The position numbers and the translations under genes are program-made. The notes under the pieces were generated by a model. The model saw only the letters and a program-made list of their open reading frames with translations. It did no database searches and was not told where the DNA came from. From the NCBI GenBank assembly GCA_000004985.1, contig GG738901.1: a stretch of 64,000 bases of DNA. One strand, written 5' to 3'. Positions 14,327 to 63,751 of the stretch are shown here, one piece after another. The number at the start of each line of letters is the position of its first letter. Position 1 is the first letter of the stretch. Source of the DNA: Naegleria gruberi (Eukaryota).

Positions 14327-14400
14327 CCGCCCCACGTGGGGCTCGAACCCACGACCGTTGGATTAAAAGTCCAACGCTCTACCGACTGAGCTAGCAGGGC
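14327..14400 (-). tRNA. tRNA-Lys(TTT)
   Basis: Minus strand: GCCCTGC-TA-GCTCAGTCGGTAGAGC-G-TTGGA-CTTTTAA-TCCAA-CGGTC-GTGGG-TTCGAGC-CCCAC-GTGGGGC-G. It is a canonical cloverleaf with A and B boxes and anticodon UUU. Downstream on the minus strand the sequence is T-rich. Confidence 0.85.
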
Positions 14401-33239: not shown

Positions 33240-36200
33240 ATGAAGGACGAAGAGATGGTGGAGAATAATCAATCTACTGTTAATGAAGATGGAATCAAGA
33301 CATCATCTGAAGCTAAACCAACACAATTTAACCACTCCTCACATCATCAAAGGCCTCATCATATTAACAAGGGTCTCGGAGAAGAACAACAATACAAATT
33401 TCCTTCATCTATTACACCACTTTCACTGGCCAATATTCATGCCAATGCATCGACTAACTTACTGCTAACTTCATCAACATTATTTAATTCTTCAAGTGAA
33501 TCACATGGTGGTGGAACCATTTCGAGAAGCTCCTCCAATACTTCAATGGATAGCTCCTCCTATTCACTCTTGAATAATCACCATCATCTAACCACATCTT
33601 CCTCACCCTCTGATGGTTTTCACTCAACTCTAAAATCCCTAGAAAATGTTCTCCCTCCATTCTTTACTCCATGCGTGCCACCTCATGCATCATTCAATTA
33701 CTATTCAGAACATTATTGGGGAGAACATCCCTTATCACTAACCTCCTTCTCTCCAATTCTTCATTATGAAAAGAAGTCATCTCTAACGATTATTTGTCGA
33801 TACACACCACAACAAACTAGGAATTCTCCAAGAAGGGAGAGACCTTCCTCTCAAAAAGAATTAATAGAGAATGAGATTTATTGTCTGAAAGTTTCACTGG
33901 ACAAACCATCCATTCCAAAGCTGGAAAGGGATGCAGAAATTTCTCGATTCTTGACCAATGAATTTTCTCAAGTGTTGGATCCAGCACAACAGGTTATTGT
34001 CAGTACTAAGGCCTATTTGTCTGATTATTTTATTCTCGTGAGGGAGTTTATTGATTGTGTTTCGTTGAGATCATTTATTGATAGATCGAAAACATATGCT
34101 AGAGCAGAACCAATTACTGATGAGAATTTTGAAACCTTAACAGATGATACTGTAACACTTCTCAATGAAGAACAACGAGTGAAAGAAAACATTACAATAT
34201 TGGAAAGTAATTTAACACTTGCTATTTCTATTTGTATGAGTGTTGCTCAACTGCATCACTCAAGAGTTTGTCATGCTGACATTAGGCCAGAAAATATAAT
34301 TGTAGAAGGACCTAAATGCAATATAAGATTGATTGATTTTGGAAAGAGTACATTCCTCCCTTTGGAGCATCCATTTTTATATACCGATAAAATTATTGGT
34401 AGTCAAATGTATTGTGCTCCAGAGGCAACAGGAAAGATTCCAAAACCAATAGGTTTCCACACTGATATATATTCACTTGGATTTGTTCTCTTTGAGTTAT
34501 TTTCCAAAGAACATCCATTTACCAAGTTTAGGACATTAGATTTCGTATTTCAACATTTGACTCAACAGCCAGAGTCCTTGTTTCAAAATCTAGCGAGAAG
34601 GTCTTTTATATCAGCCAATGAAGGAAACCTATTCACAGCTGCTACTAAAGCAATTTCAAGACTAATTACCAAAGCAATTCAAAAATCTATTGAGAAACGT
34701 TATTTGAGTATTTTTGGATTGAAACGAGATTTGGTCTACATACAGAATGCTATTCAACTAGAAGATATGGAAGCTCTTGAAAATTTTCAAGCTGGTATGA
34801 ATGATGTTCAAACAACTTTATCCATACCTTATGGTGTATATGGTAGAGAGGAAATTTTCAAAAAATTGGAACTGAAACTTGAAAATATGATGGAATCTAG
34901 TGAGCCAACGATTGTCCTTCTGGGGGGCTATAGTGGCATAGGTAAATCATGTATTGTTAAGGAGTTTAGGACAAGAAGTAAAACAGCAATACAATTCTTT
35001 GAGGCAAAATACGATCAACATATGAATGTACCTTACTATGCCATTATTTCCATATGTAAACAAATTATTGGCGACGTTCTTGGAGAATCTGAATCAGTGA
35101 TTAAGGATTTCAGATTCCAACTTGGTACACTTATCAATTCAGATCAATTAGAAATGTTGAGTGATGCAATTCCTGACATGTCATATTTATTTACAACTAA
35201 TGCAACCAAAAAGCATACCTCCCCATCAATGGGAGATCAGAATGGAGAGCGTATGAAGCTCTTTTCACAAGGAAGTAAGTAATATTTTGAATTTAACATT
35301 ATAACAATATTATATTGCTCAGTTATTCATCTCTTTAGTGTTTATACTCATTTAAAGAAAAAGAGGTTATGCATTTTCTTGGATGACTTGCAATGGACTG
35401 ATTTTGATAGCATGAAGCTATTGAAGGAAATTCTTGGAACTGGTTCTTGTGATACTGTTCCTCTTTTAATTATTGGAGCATATAGAAATAACGAAGTGGG
35501 AAAGGACCATCCTCTATTTTACTTTTTAGAAAATCTCAAACTTAAAGTGAACATTGAAGAAATTGAAGTTGTTGAGTTGACAGAAGATCAATCTAACATG
35601 ATTGTCTCAGAGTCTTTAAGGAAAAATAGAGCTGAAACAGAAGAACTAACCAAAATACTCTTCTCTAGGACGAATGGAAACCCCTTCTTTTTAAAGCAGT
35701 TATTGGCTGGTTTATTTAAGGACGGATCTATTTATTTCGATACTCAAACAGATACTATTACATGGGATAAAAAGAAAATAGAAAATGCAGAATACTCTGA
35801 AAATGTTATTGACTATCTCCTTGGACATTTGGAAAAATTACCAAAACAAACACAAGATATTCTTGCATTTGCTTCTTGCTTTGGAAATAAGTTTTCCAAT
35901 GAAGACATGCTCCACCTACTCAATCAGCAACAAGAAGAAAAGATAGACTTGATGCAACTTAAAGAAAGATTGAACTATGCGGTGAAGGAGGGATGGATTT
36001 CAAATATCAATTCTGGTAATTTACGATTTAATCATGATAGACTCCAACAAGCTGCTTATGAATCACTGCCTTTGAATGAAAGGTTGAGAATTCACTATAC
36101 CTATGGTAAGCAGCTTCTCAAAAAAGCAGAAGAAGATGATTCTTTGGAGGAACGTTTATTTGATATAGTTGTACAGTTAAATCACAAACATAATGATCCT

Positions 36201-39200
36201 GCTTTCTTGGAGAATAGAGATGAGAGAAGATTACTCATTGACCTCAATAATAGAGCTGCAAAGAAGGCTTTGGAAACATCATCTACAGATAAAGCCATTG
36301 GCTTTGTTTATATTGCAAGGCAAATTCTAGAACACGAACCAGACTGTTGGAGTGAAGAAACTTATAAGTTGGCTTTTGAGAGTTTACTAATTGTTGGTAA
36401 TTGTAACTATTCTGTAAATATAGAATTGGCAACCTCTCTATTCATGGAAGCTATTCAAAAAGCTCAAAACAAGACAGATCTTTATGAGGCATGCAACCAT
36501 GGATTGATGGCCTATCTTTCACAAGGAAAATATGAAGATGTGTTTAAAATTTTGACTGATCATGTATTTACTACATATGAAGAGTTGAATTTCCTTACTC
36601 AGGAGCATACTGTTGAATCCTTGACAACATGGATACTTAACAAGATGAAATACATGAAAGAACATGTGCTCGTTAATTTTACTCAAAAATCTGACATTCT
36701 CAATTTGCCAGATATTGATGATTTGGAAAAGTGGCATCTTATTTGTTTGCTCACTCAATCCTGTCCTGCTGTTTTTCATATGAATAACTCACTCAGCAAA
36801 CACTACTTTATGATTATGATATTAATATCGTCTGATATAGTTTTAAATAATGGCATTACTCCTCTTTCCCCATTGTTAATTTCAGTCTTTGCATGGTCTT
36901 GGTGTAATTTTGAGTTTTATCCTCAGATGAACATGTTCTTAGAGGCAGGATTAGAGATGGAAAAGACTAGATTCAGGAATGAGCATGAATTGGCAAGTTG
37001 CACATTGATGAAGTTGATGAGTTATTACTTTTCGCCAACAATTAACCCTCTTGAGGTGTGGAATATATCCGAGGAAGCCTTCTTATTGTCTGTGAAATCA
37101 AAGAACAAACACTATGGCGGTTTCTCTATTCTGTGGTATCCATTCCATCACTTATTCTATAGCCACGGAGATGTAAAGACTTCTATTGGATTGAGCTTGA
37201 ATTCAATTGAGATTTTCAAGAGAAATGGAAATGTTATGTTGATGGATGCCAGTAAAATGATACTGGAATTGAAATATGTTCTTTCAGGAGATGTAGACCA
37301 TTACCTGCCAACGTATGTAAGCCAAGTGAAGGAATATCCATTCTTTAGACAAATGCACTACTCGTTCAAGGGAATTTCACTCTATTTCCAAAATGATATT
37401 GAAAAATCTTTCAAGTGTATGGAAAAATCGTATGATTTTAGAGAAGACTCTGTTGGTATGTGTTCAAGCTGGATTGATTTAATCTTCCTAGGTTTAATCT
37501 CAGCTATCTTTTTGAGAAGTGCTCAAGAAAAGATTGAAAAAGCCCAAGAAATACTGAAATATTCTATAGAAAGATTGGAAATGATTTCCCAAGCTAATTC
37601 TTCTGTTTTTCTTGCTCCTTTGGAGTTCATAAGAGCCGAGACATTGTACTCAGAATATTGTAGAACAGGTGTCGAAAATACTAGAAAAATCATTTCTCAC
37701 TACAGAAAGAGTTATATTATGGCTGAAAAGGAAAGAAACACCTTTTTAGCTAGGCTGATTAATTTGAGAACAGGAGAGTTTTACAACAGTCTAGGTATGG
37801 ATGATGGTATTAGTGGAAACTACTTCCTTAGAGCTATGGAATCTTTTGAACAGTTTGGTGCTTCCATCGTTGTTGATTATATTTTGGAGAATTATTCAGG
37901 TCACATCGATGGCTATTCATCATTTAGTAATAGAAATCCTGAACAAGTATTCTCTAACACTTCTCTATCTGATGAAACAACAGATCACTCTCTTGCTGGA
38001 GTAACAAAGAGCAGAATTTCTGAATCAACAGAATTGGATTTTAGAGAGATTTTCATTTCAATTCTGCCAATTCTTTCAGAACAAACGTTATCACCAAGAT
38101 GTTGTTTGATTTTGAAGAGAGATTCAACAGTTTATGTAGATGCCGAATTTAATGCAGACCTGAATTCTATTGAAGCACTTTCGTCTACCAAACAATTCGA
38201 AAATAGTGATTTGGACAAATTTTCAGATTTATTCCCTCTCAAGATGATTCACAGAACTCTAAGATCCAGAACAGAGCAACAACTCGTATGGAATGACAAT
38301 GAGAAAGAGTATTACTTTGTGAAGAATGTAGTGGCCTCTGCTTTATCTATTCCTATCATGAAGAAAAAGACAGTCATAGGTATGCTTTTTATTATTATTT
38401 TATTTATATTATTTAATGTATTAAGGTTGTATATACTTGGAAAATAAGGAAACGAAGGATGTATTCACAACTGAAAAAATTAACCTTGCCAAACTTATCA
38501 TCTCGATCAGTTTGGACAATGCTGGAATTTTCACATCTATTAACAAATCCTATGCTAGGTTTTTACCTGCTGAATTCTTAAAGTTGCTTGGAAAGAGTCA
38601 CGTAACTAAGGTAAGGTTGGGCGATGCAGTTTCTAGAGAAATGACAGTGCTCTTCAGTGATATTTATGGATTTACAGAGATTATGGAGGGACTTTCTGCA
38701 AAGGATGGCTTTGCTTTTATTAATCTACTATTGAAGAGTATTGCACCTCCAATTTCAAGAAACTCTGGATTTATTGACAAGTTTGTTGGTGATGGAATAT
38801 TGGCATTGTTTATTGAACCGCAAGGAGCTGTCACTGCAGCTTTAGAAATGATTTCAGAATTGGAAGTTTTCAATAGTAGAAATAATACCAATGTAAAGTT
38901 GGGAGTTGGTTTGCATCATGGTATTGTTCAACTTGGTACGATTGGATATGAGCAACGATTGGATGCTACTGTTATTTCAGATACTGTGAACACAGCTAGC
39001 AGATGTGAATCTCTCACAAGAACTTTTCATTCACATATTCTAGTTACTAAACCAGTTATGGATGCTGTTACAGTGCCACACAGTGTGATAAGTACCGAGT
39101 TGGGTAAATTCATGCTGAAAGGAAAACACATACCTCATCAAATTTACAATATCGCTTCTAAATCATGGAAAGGAAGTGGTAGTGCTAAAGAATTCGCTTT

Positions 39201-39423
39201 ACTAAGCAAAGTTATTGATCTCTTCTCCAGGAGTGAATTTACCGAATCATTTGCCCTCGCAGAAACAATTCTCAAGAATACAAAGAACAATACCATTATA
39301 GCTGCATGCAACATGTATAAGGAAGCATCAACATTATACGGATCAGTTGTTTTACCAAGTGAATGGCAAGGTGAAATTCGGTTGACCAAGGATGGAGAAG
39401 TCAGAGAGTACTTTTCAAAATAA
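33240..39423 (+). CDS. Multidomain signalling protein of about 2017 aa: Ser/Thr protein kinase – STAND P-loop NTPase – long helical region – GAF-like segment – class III adenylyl cyclase; 3 exons (33240-35278, 35366-38379, 38426-39423)
   Basis: Kinase: HADIRPENIIV, DFGKS, CAPE, DIYSLGFVLFEL. NTPase Walker A IVLLGGYSGIGKSCIV lies at the end of ORF 1, and Walker B LCIFLDDLQW is created only after splicing an 87-nt intron (GTAATA at 35279 to AAAAAGAG| at 35365). The adjacent GTAAGT at 35275 gives the wrong phase. The second intron, GTATGC at 38380 to TTAAG| at 38425 (46 nt, phase 1), regenerates …SALSIPIMKKKTVIG-CIYLENKE…, a GAF-like terminal strand. Cyclase: MTVLFSDIYGFTEIM, DKFVGDGILALF (Lys consistent with adenine specificity), GLHHGIVQLGTIG, DTVNTASRCES. 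The exons sum to 6051 nt. The N-terminal 230 aa are S/H/N-rich. Confidence 0.7.
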
Positions 39424-42039: not shown

Positions 42040-42137
42040 AGTGTTGAGTAAATAAAAACTGATGAAACATTTAGACATCACCAAATATAATGTCGTTTTT
42101 TCCCGTAAATGAGAAATATTTGCATTAAGAACAAGAT

Positions 42138-42209
42138 TCCCGTGTAGTCCAATGGCTAGGATACCTGGCTTTCACCCAGGAGGTCCGGGTTCAATTCCCG
42201 GCATGGGAG
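42138..42209 (+). tRNA. tRNA-Glu(TTC)
   Basis: TCCCGTG-TA-GTCC-AATGGCTA-GGAT-A-CCTGG-CTTTCAC-CCAGG-AGGT-CCGGG-TTCAATT-CCCGG-CATGGGA-G. Canonical cloverleaf with anticodon UUC and an intact B box GGTTCAATTCC. Confidence 0.9.
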
Positions 42210-42214
42210 AATCG

Positions 42215-42271: not shown

Positions 42272-43690
42272 TTATTCAGTACTTGGATTGTAAAATTCGT
42301 TAATGGAAGAGTGAGAAATAGATGCCACAAACTTTTCTTTGGTAATTTCATAGTACGACTCGACAGAATTATAATCTGCATCAGGATTTTTTGCTAGCAT
42401 GTTGGCATTGGTGATAAGATGATGCATTAGAGAGTCTTTCTCTATTAAATTGTCCTGAATCATTTTGTGAACCATTCCTGAACTGAAATAATTTGTTGAA
42501 TCCCATCTATTATGTGGTAACTGTGTTAAAATCTCTAAATAGAGAAGACCTCCAACAATATCCAATGTAAATATATTCTCCAACAATGACACATATTTCA
42601 CAGATAACCTTACCAGTTTTGGAAATCTGCTTCTAGTAATTCCTTGTAAAATATTCTTCTCTGCGGTATCATCTAAAAATTGAGGCATTTTGATTGTCAA
42701 ATCAATTACGTTTTGGAAAGAACAGTCCTCTAAAAATTTAACATTCGTCCAATCACTATCTCCACCTAAAATTAAGGATAGAAAAAGGACACTGTTTGGT
42801 ATTTGAAACTTTTCACTTTCCTCCTGTGATATTTCTATTGACATGGCAATAAATCTGTTTGAAAACAACAAATTATCTTTTGCATCTGAAGAGGAAACCA
42901 TCAATCCAATAGCATTGCTATTCAGAGTACTACTGAGAGATGTGAGTAAACCTAGGTTCATTAGTTGGCATTCCTCAAGAGTAGAAAACTCATTATAACT
43001 CGAATTTCTCTCACTATCAAAGTATGATATCATTTCCAATGATAAAATCAATGCCTTATGTAGAAACAACTCATAGCTGCCAAGGGAGAGGTTTTTCTCA
43101 ATCCTTTGCATCTTTTCATTGTCCACCATTAACTTGGCGAATCTATGATCAAATATCTCCTCAACATCCCAGTCGTAATATTCATTTTCCATTTGATTGA
43201 AATCTATTGTAAAACCATACGTGCTAAAAATGTTGTTTAATTCAACAATGTTGCGATATTCACTATTTACGCCCATTTCAGTTCTTTCAATCAACTTTTG
43301 TAAGTTAGCCATTTTCAACGTCTCTTCTTCATTAATATCACCCCTGGCGAGTTGAAGCCCACTATAAGAGTCATATCTTCTCAAATACAGAGTCATTTCA
43401 AATATGTTGGAAACTTTCAGCCAAAACTCTTGCATTTCCTCATCGTTTAATAATTGATCCCTAAGAGATTTAGAAACACAACAACAAACTGCATGAACTG
43501 CTCTTACCTGTGTCAATTTAATATACGAAAATAAGTATTGGTCGTAAAATCGAAAATAGACACACGGATACATTTTACCAAAGCGGCTGATAGGTCCTAG
43601 AAGATATTCAAAAATACTAAATTTCCACAGGTCTGTGGGAATATCCAACAAGGAAGAGTGTGGGTGATGGGGTTGTTGTGATGTGAACAT
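42272..43690 (-). CDS. F-box-like protein (472 aa), remainder uncharacterised
   Basis: ATG in A-rich context. The N-terminus SLLDIPTDLWKFSIFEYLLGP fits the F-box pattern LxxLPxElwxxIfxyL. The remainder is helical/Leu-rich with no clear repeat register. Confidence 0.5.
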   Translation of the reverse strand: MFTSQQPHHPHSSLLDIPTDLWKFSIFEYLLGPISRFGKMYPCVYFRFYDQYLFSYIKLTQVRAVHAVCCCVSKSLRDQLLNDEEMQEFWLKVSNIFEMTLYLRRYDSYSGLQLARGDINEEETLKMANLQKLIERTEMGVNSEYRNIVELNNIFSTYGFTIDFNQMENEYYDWDVEEIFDHRFAKLMVDNEKMQRIEKNLSLGSYELFLHKALILSLEMISYFDSERNSSYNEFSTLEECQLMNLGLLTSLSSTLNSNAIGLMVSSSDAKDNLLFSNRFIAMSIEISQEESEKFQIPNSVLFLSLILGGDSDWTNVKFLEDCSFQNVIDLTIKMPQFLDDTAEKNILQGITRSRFPKLVRLSVKYVSLLENIFTLDIVGGLLYLEILTQLPHNRWDSTNYFSSGMVHKMIQDNLIEKDSLMHHLITNANMLAKNPDADYNSVESYYEITKEKFVASISHSSINEFYNPSTE

Positions 43691-43740: not shown

Positions 43741-46563
43741 TTAAAGGTCATCATCTGATTCAACCTCTTCGACTCCCTCCACTATTGGTTCTTCTTCTTC
43801 TACAATCATAGGGCCACTTTGATTGTCAACTCTGGCTTTGGTGAATTTGTAGAGTTTGTCCAAGAGTGAACGACCTTGATCCCACCAAGAAATATCAACC
43901 TCATGATAGGTGCCACGAAGTGGATTGATAACTCCAATATTCTTAATTTCCATTCCATCCAATCTAGCCATGGCTGCATAGCAGAGTAATTGAATAATCC
44001 ACTCAACTTCAATATCTTGGGATACCGAACATTTAATATCAATAATGGTCTCGCCATCAATGATGATATCTGCCTCTCCAGTAACATGTTTTCCATAACT
44101 GAGACTTCTATGGGTATTAACTGAGCTTTCAGTTTTTTCTACAATAAATGGAACAAAGTGCTCTTGTAAATTATTGAACAGTTCTGTATAGTTTGGAGCA
44201 ATGTCCTTAATAAAGTCAAACTTTTTCTTTAGATTGGTATTGCCAAGATAGAGCATTCTGGTTCTTCCCTCTTTAACAACTGCATCAAGTTTGGAAATTT
44301 CGAATACACTTTCTAGAATATCAATTGACTCATAATTTGGATTTGTAAAAATTCTGTAAGCTGTTTTTAAACTGTCTACATAACCGGGTGGGAAGGCATA
44401 TTCTGTCATTACTGGAATAACCTCGAATGAAAATTGTCCCTTCTCCAATATTTTCTCGAAAGATTCAATAATCTCAGTCATGACTATCTTTTCATAGCCA
44501 TCAGTAATAGATTTTAACAAAGCTTTTGGAGGTTTTCCATTTCTCATCAACTGCTTCAATTTCTTTGCATATCTATTAAAGACCTGGATACTGCCTGTAT
44601 TTAATACGATTGCCTCGTTAATGAAGAGTTCAGTGCATGTATGACTAAAACCTCCTCCATTAGGTATTTTCTCAGAAATCATTCTACAAAATAAAGTATC
44701 AATAAAGTTTCCAAAGTCTGTAAACATTTGATTTTCGTAAACCACGTCACAGTATGCAAAGTCTGTATCCACAATTTTGGTTTTCGTAAATTCGATTTGT
44801 GGCAAACATCCTTCTTCCTTGAGTATTGTCATGAGTTCTCCATCAATATTACGAACCATATTTGTTACGGTGTATGGATTAATAGATGAGTCGGATGCTG
44901 ATCTTGGCTGTTCTGAAATACGCAAGTCTGTGGGACTATGTAATCTGAATACGCTACGATCAATCTCTGTTATATAACTCAAACAAGTTGCTGTCTTGGG
45001 GAGAACAATGTGTAACTCATCCTTTGCTCTGGTAACAGCCACATATAATACACGTCTTAGTTCCGCATCATTATCACCTTTCCATTTATCATTTGATGAA
45101 TCCACCAAGAAAACAATATCCCACTCCAAACCTTTAGACTTGTGTATGGTTGATAGGCAAACTTTTCCAGTTGTTGTGTGTCTTTCCATTTCCTTTAAAG
45201 ATTTTGATTTTTCCATAATAGTAATATGTGGAATGAAGAATTTAGATAATTGTTCCTCTACCTTATAGAGACCATAATTTGTTGGAGAAAGGATTGCTAT
45301 TCTTTCTCTTGGCACTCCACGTTTCAAATATTCTGATATTTTCTTAGCAACATACAAACCCTGGTTATCATTTACAATGATTGGTTTAAGATTAGATTCT
45401 CTTGTGGTTGTCATTTCTTTTGGAATATTATCTGGATTATTTCTCAAAATTGCATTTGCCACTTGCAAAATTTCTGGCGTACTTCTATAATTTCTAGTCA
45501 GTGTTAACAGCTTAGAGTTTGGATATTTTGAGTGAAAATTCAAAATATGTTCCACACTGGATCCTCTCCATGAGTAAATGTTTTGCGAATCATCTCCTAC
45601 GGCAATTATCTTGCATCCTCTTTTGTGAAACTCTTCAAAAATCTCTGCTTGAAAATTATCAATATCTTGATACTCATCAATTATGAGATACTTTTTCTTT
45701 TTACAAATTTCATCCGCAATTTCTGGATAATTCTTCATTAAGTTCCTCAATCTATATCCATATTCAATCACACAAGCTTGAGAATCAAAATATTGCCAAT
45801 ATTTCTTCAATGTCTTGTAAGCAAATGCATCAATGGTTCCAATAGTAAATTTACTCTTAACTCCAATACTGGCAAGCTTTTCCTTCATATCATTTGCTGC
45901 CAATCTTGAAAATGTTGTCAACATGATCTGATGAGCTGGAATTTTCAAATACTTTATCATGTAAACAATTTTACAAATAATGGTTGTTGTCTTTCCACTT
46001 CCAGCGCAAGCCAACACTAACAAGTCATCATTCACATCTCCAAAAACAACTTGCTTTTGTTCTTCACTCAAATCAATCTGTACATCATCAATTGTAAATG
46101 TTTTCATAATTTCCTCTTCGGATGGAAAAACAATTTCCTTCTTCTTCCTTACTCTTTTTACAGGCTTTGAAATTTCCTCATCACCTCCAAAATTAATTTC
46201 CGGCATTAAACTAATTGCCTCATTACTCATAGCATTAATGATTTCTTCCTTTTCTTGAGGTTGGTGAGTAGAAAATAATTCCTTCACCTCATCATCTTGT
46301 TGCTTCAAAGTCTGTTTCCTTCTCGTAGCATTATTAATCAAAGATTGAGAAAAACATCTCCTCATCATTACATGATTCAATAAAGTAGAGTTATTGGTTT
46401 TCAACAAGGCTGATGAAGATCCTGTCGGGAATGATTTATTTCCACCATTAATTTTAATATGATTAATTATATTATTGTTATTACTATTTAAATGATGTAA
46501 AGTTGAAGTGGATGATAATGTATTCAAGCGATAGAGAAGTGAATTGTGCTTGATGTTGCGCAT
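43741..46563 (-). CDS. UvrD/PcrA/Rep-family SF1 helicase fused to a C-terminal RecB-like PD-(D/E)xK nuclease domain (940 aa)
   Basis: Helicase motifs: I LVLACAGSGKTTTI, Ia TFSRLAANDMKEKL, II LIIDEYQDI, III VGDDSQNIYSWRG, IV TLTRNYRSTPEIL, and V/VI TIHKSKGLEWDIVFL…RRVLYVAVTRAKDEL. The C-terminal 150 aa carry GEADIIIDGETIIDIKCS (the D…D.K core of the PD-(D/E)xK fold) followed by QLLCYAAMA (the QxxxY motif of RecB-family nucleases). An N-terminal extension of about 150 aa is N/S-rich. Confidence 0.8.
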   Translation of the reverse strand: MRNIKHNSLLYRLNTLSSTSTLHHLNSNNNNIINHIKINGGNKSFPTGSSSALLKTNNSTLLNHVMMRRCFSQSLINNATRRKQTLKQQDDEVKELFSTHQPQEKEEIINAMSNEAISLMPEINFGGDEEISKPVKRVRKKKEIVFPSEEEIMKTFTIDDVQIDLSEEQKQVVFGDVNDDLLVLACAGSGKTTTIICKIVYMIKYLKIPAHQIMLTTFSRLAANDMKEKLASIGVKSKFTIGTIDAFAYKTLKKYWQYFDSQACVIEYGYRLRNLMKNYPEIADEICKKKKYLIIDEYQDIDNFQAEIFEEFHKRGCKIIAVGDDSQNIYSWRGSSVEHILNFHSKYPNSKLLTLTRNYRSTPEILQVANAILRNNPDNIPKEMTTTRESNLKPIIVNDNQGLYVAKKISEYLKRGVPRERIAILSPTNYGLYKVEEQLSKFFIPHITIMEKSKSLKEMERHTTTGKVCLSTIHKSKGLEWDIVFLVDSSNDKWKGDNDAELRRVLYVAVTRAKDELHIVLPKTATCLSYITEIDRSVFRLHSPTDLRISEQPRSASDSSINPYTVTNMVRNIDGELMTILKEEGCLPQIEFTKTKIVDTDFAYCDVVYENQMFTDFGNFIDTLFCRMISEKIPNGGGFSHTCTELFINEAIVLNTGSIQVFNRYAKKLKQLMRNGKPPKALLKSITDGYEKIVMTEIIESFEKILEKGQFSFEVIPVMTEYAFPPGYVDSLKTAYRIFTNPNYESIDILESVFEISKLDAVVKEGRTRMLYLGNTNLKKKFDFIKDIAPNYTELFNNLQEHFVPFIVEKTESSVNTHRSLSYGKHVTGEADIIIDGETIIDIKCSVSQDIEVEWIIQLLCYAAMARLDGMEIKNIGVINPLRGTYHEVDISWWDQGRSLLDKLYKFTKARVDNQSGPMIVEEEEPIVEGVEEVESDDDL

Positions 46564-46660: not shown

Positions 46661-48030
46661 TCAGCGTCTCTTGACTCTTATTTTCTTCTTCTTTGTAGTA
46701 GGTACATTATATTCATCGTCATCCTCTTTCATTAGTAAGGGAACTTCATCTTTCAAAGATTCTGCAACAATATTACTGAAAGATTTCTCAAACTGAACAA
46801 TAGATTCAGGTTGTTTTGGTACAGAGGATGACAAAGAAGGAGCCAAACTAGCTTCTTCTTTCGGTTCTTCTTCTGGTGTGGGTTTAGCAGAGATGCATTC
46901 CTTACATATATTGAATTTAATATCTAGTGGATAATCAAATACAAGTTGAGAAACAGCTTTGCTGATAGTAGTTTCTTTAAAATCTAAATTAGAAGGATTG
47001 TGTTTCTGGGTGAAAAATATTGGACTAGTGTCAAGTTGTTTACAATTCAAATCTTGTAAGGTAGATTCAATTTGATGTTCTGCAGTGATAAGGGATGTAA
47101 TATTCCTGAAATGAATGACTTTTTCAAAAGCATTTTTGATTCCTTGCATGTTTTCAATGAGACCTGACATGGTTGAGTATTGATCTTGAACAATTGCCAT
47201 TCTCTCTTGATGTTCTGATTGGCTTTTGTCAAGAATTTCTTTTCTTTTGTCTTCCACTTGTGCCAAATAGTTGTCAATCATAGTATTAACCCTCATTTCG
47301 TAAGTTTCTTGATTACTGACTAGTTTAGTTTGGAGAGAGCCAATCTTTTCCAATGCAACATACAAGAATTCAATATCTTGATCAACTTGCTCAATCTTGT
47401 TAGACATTCCTGCCTTAGCCTCTTCCATATGTTCATCAATTGGGACACATGTATGATTACTATGATTAGTTGATAAAGAACACAAATGACAAACTTATGT
47501 CTCTTACATTTTCCAACAGTTAGAATTGTTCCAAGTGGAGCTTTTTTATGAGAAGCAAAGAACTTGGGAGCATGAATGGATGTGAAACATTCCTCACAGA
47601 ATCTACTATTACAATCCTCACATTCAACTTGAACAATGTTAGTTTCACAATTGGCACAAGTTTCTCCCTTCTCCCTCTCCATCATATAATTTTCTACAGT
47701 ACTCTTGAGATCGTAATTAATAGGAAAGACACTTGGTACATCTTCAGAATGATTGACTTTACATTCCTTGTTGCAAGAGGGACAATTGAAACAAATTCCT
47801 TCCTTCTTGTTACTTTGATCACTTGTTGTTCCATACAATTTGTTGATCTTTGTTTGATTTCCCAGCACAGGAGCTTGAAGAAATGGTTCTTTGAGTTTTA
47901 ACTTTTTAAAATTGATATTTGCCATAATGCATCGGGTGCACATTGAATGACCACAAGGTAAAACTCTTGGATCTTGAAGAAGTTCAAAGCAAAACTTGCA
48001 TGAAAGTGATTCCTCGTCAATTACTAACAT
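46661..48030 (-). CDS. RING finger – B-box – coiled-coil (TRIM-like) protein, about 445 aa; 48030-47495 joined to 47459-46661 through a putative 35-nt intron (or a frameshift)
   Basis: C3HC4 RING CKFCFELLQDPRVLPCGHSMCTRC. B-box CANCETNIVQVECEDCNSRFCEECFTSIHAPKFFASH. Then about 200 aa with a heptad pattern (…YEMRVNTMIDNYLAQVEDKRKEILDKSQSEHQERMAIVQDQ…) and an acidic/basic C-terminus. The two ORFs overlap at 47320-47485 in different frames. Donor CATAA|GTTTGT and acceptor ATCATAG|T join them in phase 2 (…KRHN-NHTCVPIDEH…). The intron is unusually short and GTTTGT is a weak donor, so an indel is an alternative. Confidence 0.55.
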
Positions 48031-62061: not shown

Positions 62062-63751
62062 TTATTTGTTGTTGAATAGCTCAATAATTTCCTTTACCTG
62101 GGTTGGGTAGAACTTGGATTCAAATGTCATTCCAGTGCATTGAATAATTTGTGATCTGTGACATGGACCAAAGAGTTTGAGAATGCATTTGGCAAAATCA
62201 TTGCTAGTTGTCTTCTTTTTATCATCGTCTAGTAGTGTCCAATTAATATCCAAAATTTCCAAAATTAATTTGGAAATACTCGCATTTTCACCATCCAATT
62301 TGAGGATTACTTTCTTGGATGGATAAGAATAAGTGAACAACATTTCTAATTTGAAAGAAAGCTCAGATAAAGTACCATTTGCCATCTCAAACATGGCATT
62401 GGCAAATATCTTCTCCTCATGAATATATTCTGTAAATCCAATGCTGTAAGCTTCATGAAGTGTGAAATACTTGAGCTTGGAAGATGAATTCATTGATGGA
62501 AATGTCGTAACTTGGCGATTGAATCACTGAATCGAACGAGAACAAATTCTGAGATTTTCTTGCCGAGTGTTTAAGGATTTCCCTCCTAATGTAATGGAAA
62601 TATTCCATTCGTTGAGAGTGTCTCAAATCAGATTGAATAATTGGAGTTAGAATTTCCTCCTCTAAATATTTCAATCCTTCCTTTACAGTATCTGATTCAG
62701 ATTTCAATCTATTATCATCCTCTTCGTCCTCTTCATATGATATTTCTTCTATGGATCCCAATTCCTTAATCATACTCTCCATGACATTACTATTATTGTT
62801 AGCAAACGGTGCCAGACAGTTATATGTTTTGGAGCCAGCACAAATCATTAAAAAATTGAGGAAATCTTCCCAATTCCACATGATAGGAATATCCAACTCT
62901 TTCATTACTTCCGTAATGGCTTCAGAGTCAATTTTTCCAATAGCTTCATAAGAATGGTAATTGTTTTGATATTGAACTAGAATCTTCTCTTCATTATTCG
63001 AATCTCTCACCGTCAATTCATAAAATCTCTCCAGATTATAGGTTCTAGTATTCGGTCCATAAACAAAATGTTGAGAAAATATCATAAATTCCCTAATATC
63101 ATTCTCTTGTTGATTTGATTTTTTCAAAATCTTCAACTCTGCTCTTCCTCCCTGAGCTTGTGAAAAAATTCCACCAATAAATGAATTAAACGAAACTCTT
63201 CCACTCTTGAACAAGTCGCAATTTTCCATAATAACGAAGAACTCTGCAAAATGTTCATCATTTTCAAACAAATAATCAAAATACGAATCATCATTAGTAC
63301 AAATCATGCAATTTCTAATTTCGGCATTGATTTTCAATAGGCAACCATGAAAAAATTCACAACTTTTATCCTCTAGATCTATCTTGATTTTTGATAATCT
63401 ATTCATGAAGAATAATGGATCGGTGGATGAAGATGAAATGTGCAATTCTTCAGAAATTGCTTGATTGACCAATCGGAAAGTTAAAACCTCATGCAGTGGT
63501 AGAAAGGAATAAATATTGAACAAGACAGCACCATTTAGCCATGTTGAATGATGTGGTAATGTGATGCCAGATTTTTCTTGTTTAAATTCTTCCATTTTTT
63601 TCAAAATCAAATTGTAATTTAAATGTACTTTAATGGAAGTGCCATCTCCATATTGAAATGGTTGGTTGCTGGCATAATGACGAGCAAAGTAGGGCTGATT
63701 CCTTGGAAAATGTCTTTTCATCAATAATTTTGCTATTAGAATCTGATTCAT
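62062..63751 (-). CDS. F-box-like protein encoded by two overlapping minus-strand ORFs (62453-63751 and 62062-62493); probably one gene with an unresolved frame change
   Basis: The upstream ORF has an F-box-like LFNIYSFLPLHEVLTFRLVNQAISEEL and ends SINEFIFQAQVFHTS*. The downstream ORF overlaps by 41 nt in another frame. The obvious donor (CAA|GTATTT) does not give a phase-compatible acceptor, so the junction is unresolved. It may be a frameshift or pseudogene, or I may have missed a splice pattern. Confidence 0.4.

Follow-up and report, generated by a model that had tools for sequence, protein, structure and literature searches.

Fusions of a helicase with a nuclease are textbook bacterial end-resection enzymes, and a gene in the chromosome of the amoeba Naegleria gruberi raises the question of how a eukaryote came to encode a protein of this build and what the protein might do there. 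The gene lies on the minus strand of a 64-kb stretch of contig GG738901.1, all of which we refer to as the window. An earlier note had read it as a UvrD-type helicase that carries a RecB-family PD-(D/E)xK nuclease at its C-terminus, and both halves of that description are borne out, the first by Pfam matches and the second by structural comparison. Our best explanation, to which we give as a whole a probability of about 0.7, is that the open reading frame (ORF) represents a working gene of N. gruberi, descended from a giant-virus gene, whose product combines helicase and nuclease in a single polypeptide; this rests on sequence comparison and a structural model.

43741–46563, minus strand: complete ORF, the helicase–nuclease gene (ORF call and 100% identity to the public protein P0001)

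The ORF is intronless, opens with ATG and encodes 940 residues followed by a stop codon. The product is covered for 93% of its length, at 100% identity, by an 874-residue N. gruberi entry, 'predicted protein / DNA 3'-5' helicase' (P0001), whose gene model begins at Met67 (46363–46365). The first ATG (46563), preceded by a run of A and lying about 100 nt downstream of the neighbouring gene's stop codon, adds a basic, acid-free stretch of 66 residues to that model. Because the orthologues in N. lovaniensis (923 residues) and N. fowleri (926 residues), similar in length to the 940-residue product, have N-terminal regions of like length, the annotated Met67 start may be too short.

A compact SF1A helicase motor

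Residues 165–525 match Pfam UvrD-helicase (E = 4.3e-40) and UvrD_C (2.6e-25), both above the gathering score, and AAA_19 (1.4e-18); the best sequence matches in the PDB are PcrA, UvrD and Rep. Helicase motifs Q, I, Ia, II, III, IV, V and VI were all found, placing the protein in superfamily 1A (SF1A).

44929–46086, minus strand: SF1A (Rep/UvrD/PcrA-like) helicase core, residues 160–545, comprising RecA-like domains 1A and 2A and a remnant of 1B, 2B being absent
45988–46008, minus strand: motif I (Walker A), AGSGKTT, residues 186–192, with K191; invariant in a 46-sequence alignment
45664–45678, minus strand: motif II (Walker B), DEYQD, residues 296–300, from the 46-sequence alignment

The motor is markedly smaller than that of its best-known relatives. 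Domain 1B is reduced to about 30 residues as against about 110 in PcrA (query residues 246–276 correspond to PcrA 94–203), and domain 2B is absent, with query residue 447 almost directly preceding the equivalent of PcrA residue ~534. The full-length AlphaFold2 model (predicted local distance difference test (pLDDT) 88.2, predicted template-modelling score (pTM) 0.88) has just around 20 residues between the strands that flank the expected 2B position and, at that pTM, sets motor and nuclease in a defined mutual arrangement. The NCBIfam equivalog cut-offs for pcrA (183 against 911), rep (172 against 951) and uvrD (153 against 1144) are not reached, that is, 150–180 bits are scored where 900–1,150 are required. 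The absence of 2B, the reduced 1B and these scores rule out a full four-subdomain (1A, 1B, 2A, 2B) UvrD, Rep or PcrA orthologue; these three proteins also lack a nuclease. Judged from motifs and model together, the motor is an SF1A-type ATPase core with complete catalytic motifs that lacks 2B and most of 1B. PADLOC matches are to generic UvrD-helicase proteins (GajB and a DRT-associated helicase) and cover the motor only; we do not take them to indicate a defence system.

A nuclease domain recognized by its structure

Sequence searches leave the C-terminal half unassigned. Pfam, run on the full protein and on a C-terminal fragment, detected no nuclease, its single hit being Cas_Cas4 (PF01930) at E = 0.14 and 12.7 bits, short of the 22.7-bit cut-off; NCBIfam and PHROGs yielded no significant nuclease match, and neither did a 27-sequence profile run against PDB sequences. 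An hhalign comparison with the E. coli RecB nuclease domain was insignificant (E = 0.9) and aligned GEADI/IIDIK on GFIDL/LLDYK. Among the homologues, P0049 carries a precomputed match to PF12705 (PDDEXK_1).

44329–44928, minus strand: helical linker or 'arch' subdomain, residues 546–745, with a conserved DFGxFxD...R segment
43819–44328, minus strand: PD-(D/E)xK nuclease core, residues 746–915, alpha-beta-beta-beta-alpha-beta-beta-alpha (model and structural comparison)
43978–44079, minus strand: catalytic motifs, residues 829–862, comprising G-E-A-D832 (motif II), D842-I-K844 (motif III) and Q858-L-L-C-Y862 (alignments)
43744–43818, minus strand: acidic, disordered C-terminal tail, residues 916–940, specific to N. 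gruberi (pLDDT below 50)

We therefore assign the nuclease by structural comparison, which is decisive here, since sequence statistics cannot prove it. The modelled domain has the alpha-beta-beta-beta-alpha-beta core fold of the RecB/Cas4 family. Its best structural match is Dna2 (12.0), followed by MGME1 (11.3), Cas4–Cas1 (10.2), AdnA (9.6), ACE1 (9.5), SSO0001 (9.2), RecE (9.0), Exo5 (8.6), AddA (8.5), RecB (7.3) and lambda exonuclease (6.9), so the domain is structurally nearer to Dna2, MGME1 and Cas4 than to RecB. The Dna2 alignment spans 210 residues, a length probably explained by the helical subdomain of around 200 residues that precedes the nuclease core. The motif residues fall where such a fold would place them, with (in model numbering) D832 in the strand at 283–291, D842 and K844 in the strand at 295–299, and Q858 and Y862 in the helix at 309–324. 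Conservation across the 46 sequences reaches at least 90% for residues D832, K844, Q858 and Y862, and position 842 alternates between D and E; the motifs are conserved in the 27-sequence alignment too, and D832, (D/E)842, K844, Q858 and Y862 are invariant in the five heterolobosean sequences. The earlier note had worried that these motifs were fortuitous: hidden Markov models (HMMs) indeed give them no support, but structure and conservation show that they had been read correctly. On this evidence the domain is a nuclease of the RecB/Cas4/MGME1/Dna2 type with conserved metal-binding and catalytic residues, and is predicted to be active. An Fe–S cluster of the Dna2/AddB/Cas4 type was considered for N. 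gruberi and rejected, two cysteines conserved in the family being replaced there.

A family characteristic of giant viruses

Statements below about closest or only relatives refer to the best 120 matches. These homologues align at E = 1e-124 to 1e-79 with around 80% coverage and 30–35% identity, and share the helicase and nuclease architecture throughout; in 120 of 120 a C-terminal region of about 330–450 residues or more aligns with that of the query. Beyond the heterolobosean orthologues, the closest relatives, at about 35% identity, are proteins of giant viruses and of metagenomes of nucleocytoplasmic large DNA viruses (NCLDVs), and no named eukaryote other than Naegleria appears. A profile of the C-terminal region, searched against a library clustered at 50% identity, yielded 1,032 cluster representatives (E ≤ 1e-3); in almost every case the region follows a helicase of 400–650 residues.

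The named members include the Catovirus CTV1 'UvrD/REP helicase' (P0042). Structural searches of BFVD added helicases of Fadolivirus (A0A7D3QTW5), Hokovirus (A0A1V0SET7) and Moumouvirus Monve (H2EDS0) at E values of 5e-20 to 5e-10, together with members from Sylvanvirus and from a Mimivirus metagenome-assembled genome (MAG). Several environmental members lie on NCLDV-like contigs: PolB, TFIIS and a PBCV_P4-like gene adjoin P0018; a histone and a DNA methylase adjoin P0036, in a genome of 65% GC; and NDK and a Ras-family GTPase adjoin P0006, among short ORFans. A further member, P0077, sits on a 1.4-Mb record with a dense, intronless gene layout. We found no neighbour gene conserved across the viral loci L002, L005, L010 and L011. 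These comparisons place the N. gruberi protein in a large family typical of giant viruses, among them the Imitervirales.

The closest known systems are accordingly the giant-virus UvrD/REP proteins (Catovirus, Naegleriavirus coding sequence (CDS) 493, Fadolivirus, Hokovirus and Moumouvirus), which share the 2B-less helicase, the arch, the C-terminal nuclease and the motifs. Many viral members add RNase_T and some inteins; the Naegleria proteins instead bear an N-terminal extension that is basic and of low complexity, and their genes lie in a eukaryotic chromosome and may be interrupted by introns. The viral proteins are modular (P0009-P0050, P0107-P0120, P0029, P0046): by Pfam, many carry a DnaQ-like RNase_T module, which usually occupies an extended N-terminal region but in some members seems to lie in an extended region at the C-terminus. 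Inteins (Hom_end_hint) are inserted in two members. The C-terminal nuclease model is also matched by a protein from Pithovirus-like MAGs that is annotated as AP endonuclease (BFVD A0A481Z608).

The literature held no experimentally characterised eukaryotic or giant-virus helicase–nuclease of this type, and only two related reports. A 2019 in-silico study called a UvrD/Rep-like helicase of Mimivirus 'AddA-like' (PMC6466248); this Acanthamoeba polyphaga mimivirus (APMV) protein is a probable member of the family. The second is the supplement of Arthofer et al. 2024, in which the Naegleriavirus UvrD/REP protein CDS 493 has N. gruberi XP_002672029.1 as its eggNOG seed (PMC11043551, Supplementary Table 2).

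Origin of the Naegleria gene

To place the Naegleria proteins within the family, we used neighbour-joining (NJ) trees, the one for the helicase core having E. coli UvrD, Rep and RecB as its root and 100 bootstrap replicates. The three Naegleria proteins and an environmental relative, P0004, were monophyletic in 100 of 100 replicates, and this clade was nested within viral and metagenomic sequences in 93 of them. The nuclease tree recovered the Naegleria clade in 59 of 60 replicates, with the NCLDV-like pair P0018 and P0036 as its sister in 38 of 60, and the same pair was the most frequent sister in the helicase tree. As both trees give the same sister, which is the check by separate phylogenies that the earlier note had proposed, the two domains share one history and the fusion therefore predates its arrival in the amoeba. 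One of these two nearest viral relatives, P0036, lies on an unusually GC-rich contig, its gene having a GC of 65.5% and a GC at third codon positions (GC3) of 91%.

A profile search found one further eukaryotic sequence, P0127, that the word-indexed search had missed; it is 41% identical to the N. lovaniensis protein. Its gene (L012 10001–12559) has no introns and is carried by a 130-kb contig whose eukaryotic genes are split; a neighbouring HYOU1-type HSP70 there is closest to those of Willaertia magna and Acrasis kona, which places P0127 in another heterolobosean.

An origin from a giant virus, already fused, in the ancestor of Naegleria and its relatives is moderately supported by these comparisons. 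The ancestor would have acquired the ready-fused gene, which would then have been inherited vertically while its composition came to match the host genome. After the transfer one lineage would have gained introns, the viral DnaQ-like exonuclease module would have been lost or never been present, and the basic N-terminal extension would have been gained in the heterolobosean lineage. The earlier suggestion of a horizontally acquired, since domesticated and lineage-restricted gene thus stands, but its bacterial, AddA/RecB-like framing does not, as the relatives are giant-viral, 2B is absent and the equivalog scores are low. That note had also allowed that the architecture might prove widespread and already characterised in eukaryotes; it is in giant viruses that it is widespread.

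Several points weigh against this account. With broader sampling, only 17 of 40 replicates unite the five eukaryotic sequences, P0127 being basal among them, and the nesting is shallower. Support for the sister group is at most 63%. The trees are NJ only, with very distant outgroups. Eukaryotic sampling is incomplete and the word-indexed homology search demonstrably missed P0127, so that absence from its lists is weak evidence. Sequence HMMs fail to detect the nuclease domain, and for the family members we infer polarity, substrate and nuclease activity by analogy. Finally, the supplementary entry for CDS 493 describes it as a 'sister branch to or within Naegleria homologs' and treats it as host-derived, the authors taking the same relationship as transfer from host to virus (PMC11043551).

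That last reading, generalized, would have an old heterolobosean or still older eukaryotic gene captured by giant viruses and then spread among them. Apart from the published assignment, it gains from a rooting that depends on distant E. coli sequences in NJ trees and from the fall of nesting support in the broader data set. We consider it unlikely given the shape of the family, which comprises around 1,000 clusters at 50% identity and is carried by several viral lineages (Klosneuvirinae, Moumouvirus, Sylvanvirus and Pithovirus-like fusions), whereas the eukaryotic members seen form just one small clade with no other named eukaryote among the best matches. Moreover, the viral sequence nearest to the Naegleria clade is not that of Catovirus, which is the one closest to Naegleriavirus. 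Because the family is so large and virally broad, its eukaryotic clade so small and Catovirus not the nearest relative, a single old transfer from virus to heterolobosean is favoured. The distribution of the family suggests, for the pair formed by CDS 493 and the Naegleria gene, a direction opposite to the published one (PMC11043551), and we regard transfer from a viral donor into heteroloboseans as the probable direction overall.

Proposed activity and comparison with known enzymes

By analogy with characterised enzymes, the protein would load on a 3' single-stranded tail or a DNA end, and its motor would use ATP to move 3'→5' on the single strand, unwinding the duplex from an end or gap. The tracked strand would be threaded into the protein's own C-terminal nuclease, with ATP-driven end resection or degradation as the outcome and no obligatory partner of the AddB or RecC type. 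In RecB and AddA, 2B provides the contact to the partner subunit, and in Rep, UvrD and PcrA it exerts autoinhibition; its absence here suggests constitutive activity without a partner. No candidate for an AddB or RecC/RecD partner was found within the window, nor was an element for Chi recognition identified. Dna2 and MGME1 act on free ends of single-stranded DNA. In the viruses, a role in processing replication or recombination intermediates or genome ends is plausible.

Were the C-terminal domain a dead relic, as in RecC, the protein would act as a helicase or translocase only, in the manner of UvrD or Srs2. This is improbable given that the five heterolobosean sequences all keep D832, (D/E)842, K844, Q858 and Y862, as do at least 90% of the 46 members, and that between Naegleria species the nuclease is conserved like the helicase (84% against 81%).

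Like the N. gruberi protein, the bacterial end-resection subunits AddA and RecB combine in one chain an SF1A motor at the N-terminus and a RecB nuclease at the C-terminus. Direct acquisition from a bacterial gene of the AddA/RecB type could account for this domain order, also seen in AdnB, and for the term 'AddA-like' applied to the Mimivirus helicase (PMC6466248), but we consider it very improbable. The best full-length homologues are all viral or heterolobosean. AddA, RecB and AdnA/AdnB are 1,100–1,230 residues long, whereas the N. gruberi core has around 780, lacks 2B and retains a vestigial 1B. Its scores against the NCBIfam equivalogs addA_Gpos (82 against 708), recB (100 against 696) and RecB-like (85 against 650) stay far short of the cut-offs, as does that for pcrA given above; against the AddA, RecB, PcrA and UvrD models taken together, scores are 5–10 times below the cut-offs.

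The eukaryotic enzymes differ as well. In Dna2 the domains come in reverse order, the motor is of the SF1B (5'→3') kind and an Fe–S cluster is present, and MGME1 has no helicase; PDB sequence searches detected no homology of the N. gruberi protein to either. Srs2 and FBH1 lack a nuclease domain, and the nearest relatives lie elsewhere. FBH1 gives no more than a borderline PDB sequence match (E = 0.97), and the N. gruberi protein has no F-box.

A resident gene under constraint

The gene is indistinguishable in composition from its surroundings, as the earlier note had said of its codon usage. GC content is uniform across the window at around 33–35%, the gene itself having a GC of 0.341 and a GC3 of 0.296, and its codon frequencies correlate with those of the pooled neighbours at r = 0.93; viral homologues range from 22% to 66% GC. 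The neighbours are ordinary Naegleria genes, encoding PARG, leucine-rich-repeat (LRR) proteins, a kinase/AAA_16 protein, a RING/B-box protein, a serpin and two tRNAs. Within the 64 kb there is no viral hallmark gene, and neither the cluster of hallmark genes nor the deviating composition that marks a giant endogenous viral element (GEVE) was found.

Synteny and introns likewise speak for residency. The adjacent LRR gene has an orthologue in N. lovaniensis (51% identity), where a kinase/guanylate-cyclase gene also adjoins, and the N. lovaniensis helicase–nuclease gene contains two introns with GT-AG ends, 122 and 53 nt long (L001 10980–11101 and 12005–12057), after codons 326 and 627. Between N. 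fowleri and N. lovaniensis the helicase is 81% and the nuclease 84% identical while the N-terminal extension reaches just 33%, from which we infer that the enzyme is under purifying selection. That the locus is viral DNA, either an assembly contaminant or a recent endogenous giant-virus element, would fit its viral non-heterolobosean homologues but is hardly credible, being contradicted by the uniform GC and codon usage of the window, by the eukaryotic neighbours (PARG, serpin, kinases, LRR, RING/B-box) without hallmark genes, and by orthologues in three Naegleria species, syntenic in position and in one case with introns.

The helicase–LRR–kinase block is conserved between N. gruberi and N. 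lovaniensis, with the LRR gene inverted relative to the helicase; N. gruberi has in addition a 472-residue ORF (42272–43690), which adjoins the helicase gene, and a tRNA-Glu(TTC) (42137–42210, plus strand) between that ORF and the LRR gene. Three consecutive plus-strand ORFs at 33240–39423, a kinase and AAA_16 ORF followed by ORFs of 1,022 and 328 residues, probably form one large gene, the counterpart of the 1,990-residue kinase/AAA_16/guanylate-cyclase gene of N. lovaniensis (L001 15291–21688). On the minus strand, a RING-finger and B-box ORF (47320–48030) overlaps a 274-residue ORF (46661–47485) in another frame, and the two (46661–48030) are probably one gene split by an intron or a frameshift. 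A tRNA-Lys(TTT) (14328–14400, minus strand) adjoins the PARG gene.

The N-terminal extension and possible targeting

46087–46563, minus strand: N-terminal extension, residues 1–159, N/S-rich and basic with a KRVRKKK patch, poorly conserved between species

An N/S-rich N-terminal extension, remarked on at the outset, is indeed present, and in N. gruberi it contains neither D nor E before residue 90; none of the 30 ORFs of the window has a longer acid-free run than these 89 residues. Between species the extension is only 19–33% identical, as against 49–84% for the catalytic domains. All four eukaryotic copies with a complete N-terminus begin with such a basic, acid-poor extension, which the viral proteins lack. 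The N-terminus of P0127, MLRLISPMRRQLLPKRLIHHRIISKSF, strongly resembles a classical mitochondrial presequence. We considered whether the extension might be a degraded viral RNase_T exonuclease and found no similarity. Elsewhere in the window, a 432-residue ORF without a Pfam match (62453–63751, minus strand) also has a presequence-like N-terminus, MNQILIAKLLMKRHFPRNQPYFARHYAS.

The basic extension may direct the protein to the mitochondrion or the nucleus, and the KRVRKKK patch could equally be a nuclear signal. An organellar role, raised in the earlier note, finds some circumstantial support in the basic, acid-poor extensions and in the start of P0127. It is a speculative and rather doubtful step from there to heteroloboseans, including the pathogen N. 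fowleri, having domesticated the giant-virus helicase–nuclease as a mitochondrial single-chain analogue of AddA, Dna2 or MGME1 for the maintenance of the organellar genome. The mitochondrial RNA polymerase and the Twinkle helicase are of phage origin; a mitochondrial role, if true, would parallel theirs with a giant virus as donor instead.

Implications

The database link between the N. gruberi protein and the Naegleriavirus UvrD protein was already known (PMC11043551), and the architecture is widespread in giant viruses. Our analysis adds the structural identification of the predicted nuclease, a design without 2B, a history shared by both domains, a likely direction from virus to host and the presequence-like extension. 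It also exposes an annotation gap, since current domain databases miss the nuclease domain.

The protein represents a minimal, 2B-less and apparently partner-free form of helicase–nuclease that is abundant in giant viruses. It offers a testable case of a DNA-metabolism enzyme probably passed from virus to eukaryote and kept long under constraint in a lineage that includes the brain-eating amoeba N. fowleri. If mitochondrial or otherwise essential, it would be a candidate drug target, a close human homologue being absent. For the family as a whole, Naegleria would provide a tractable cellular setting in which to learn the role of a giant-virus enzyme.

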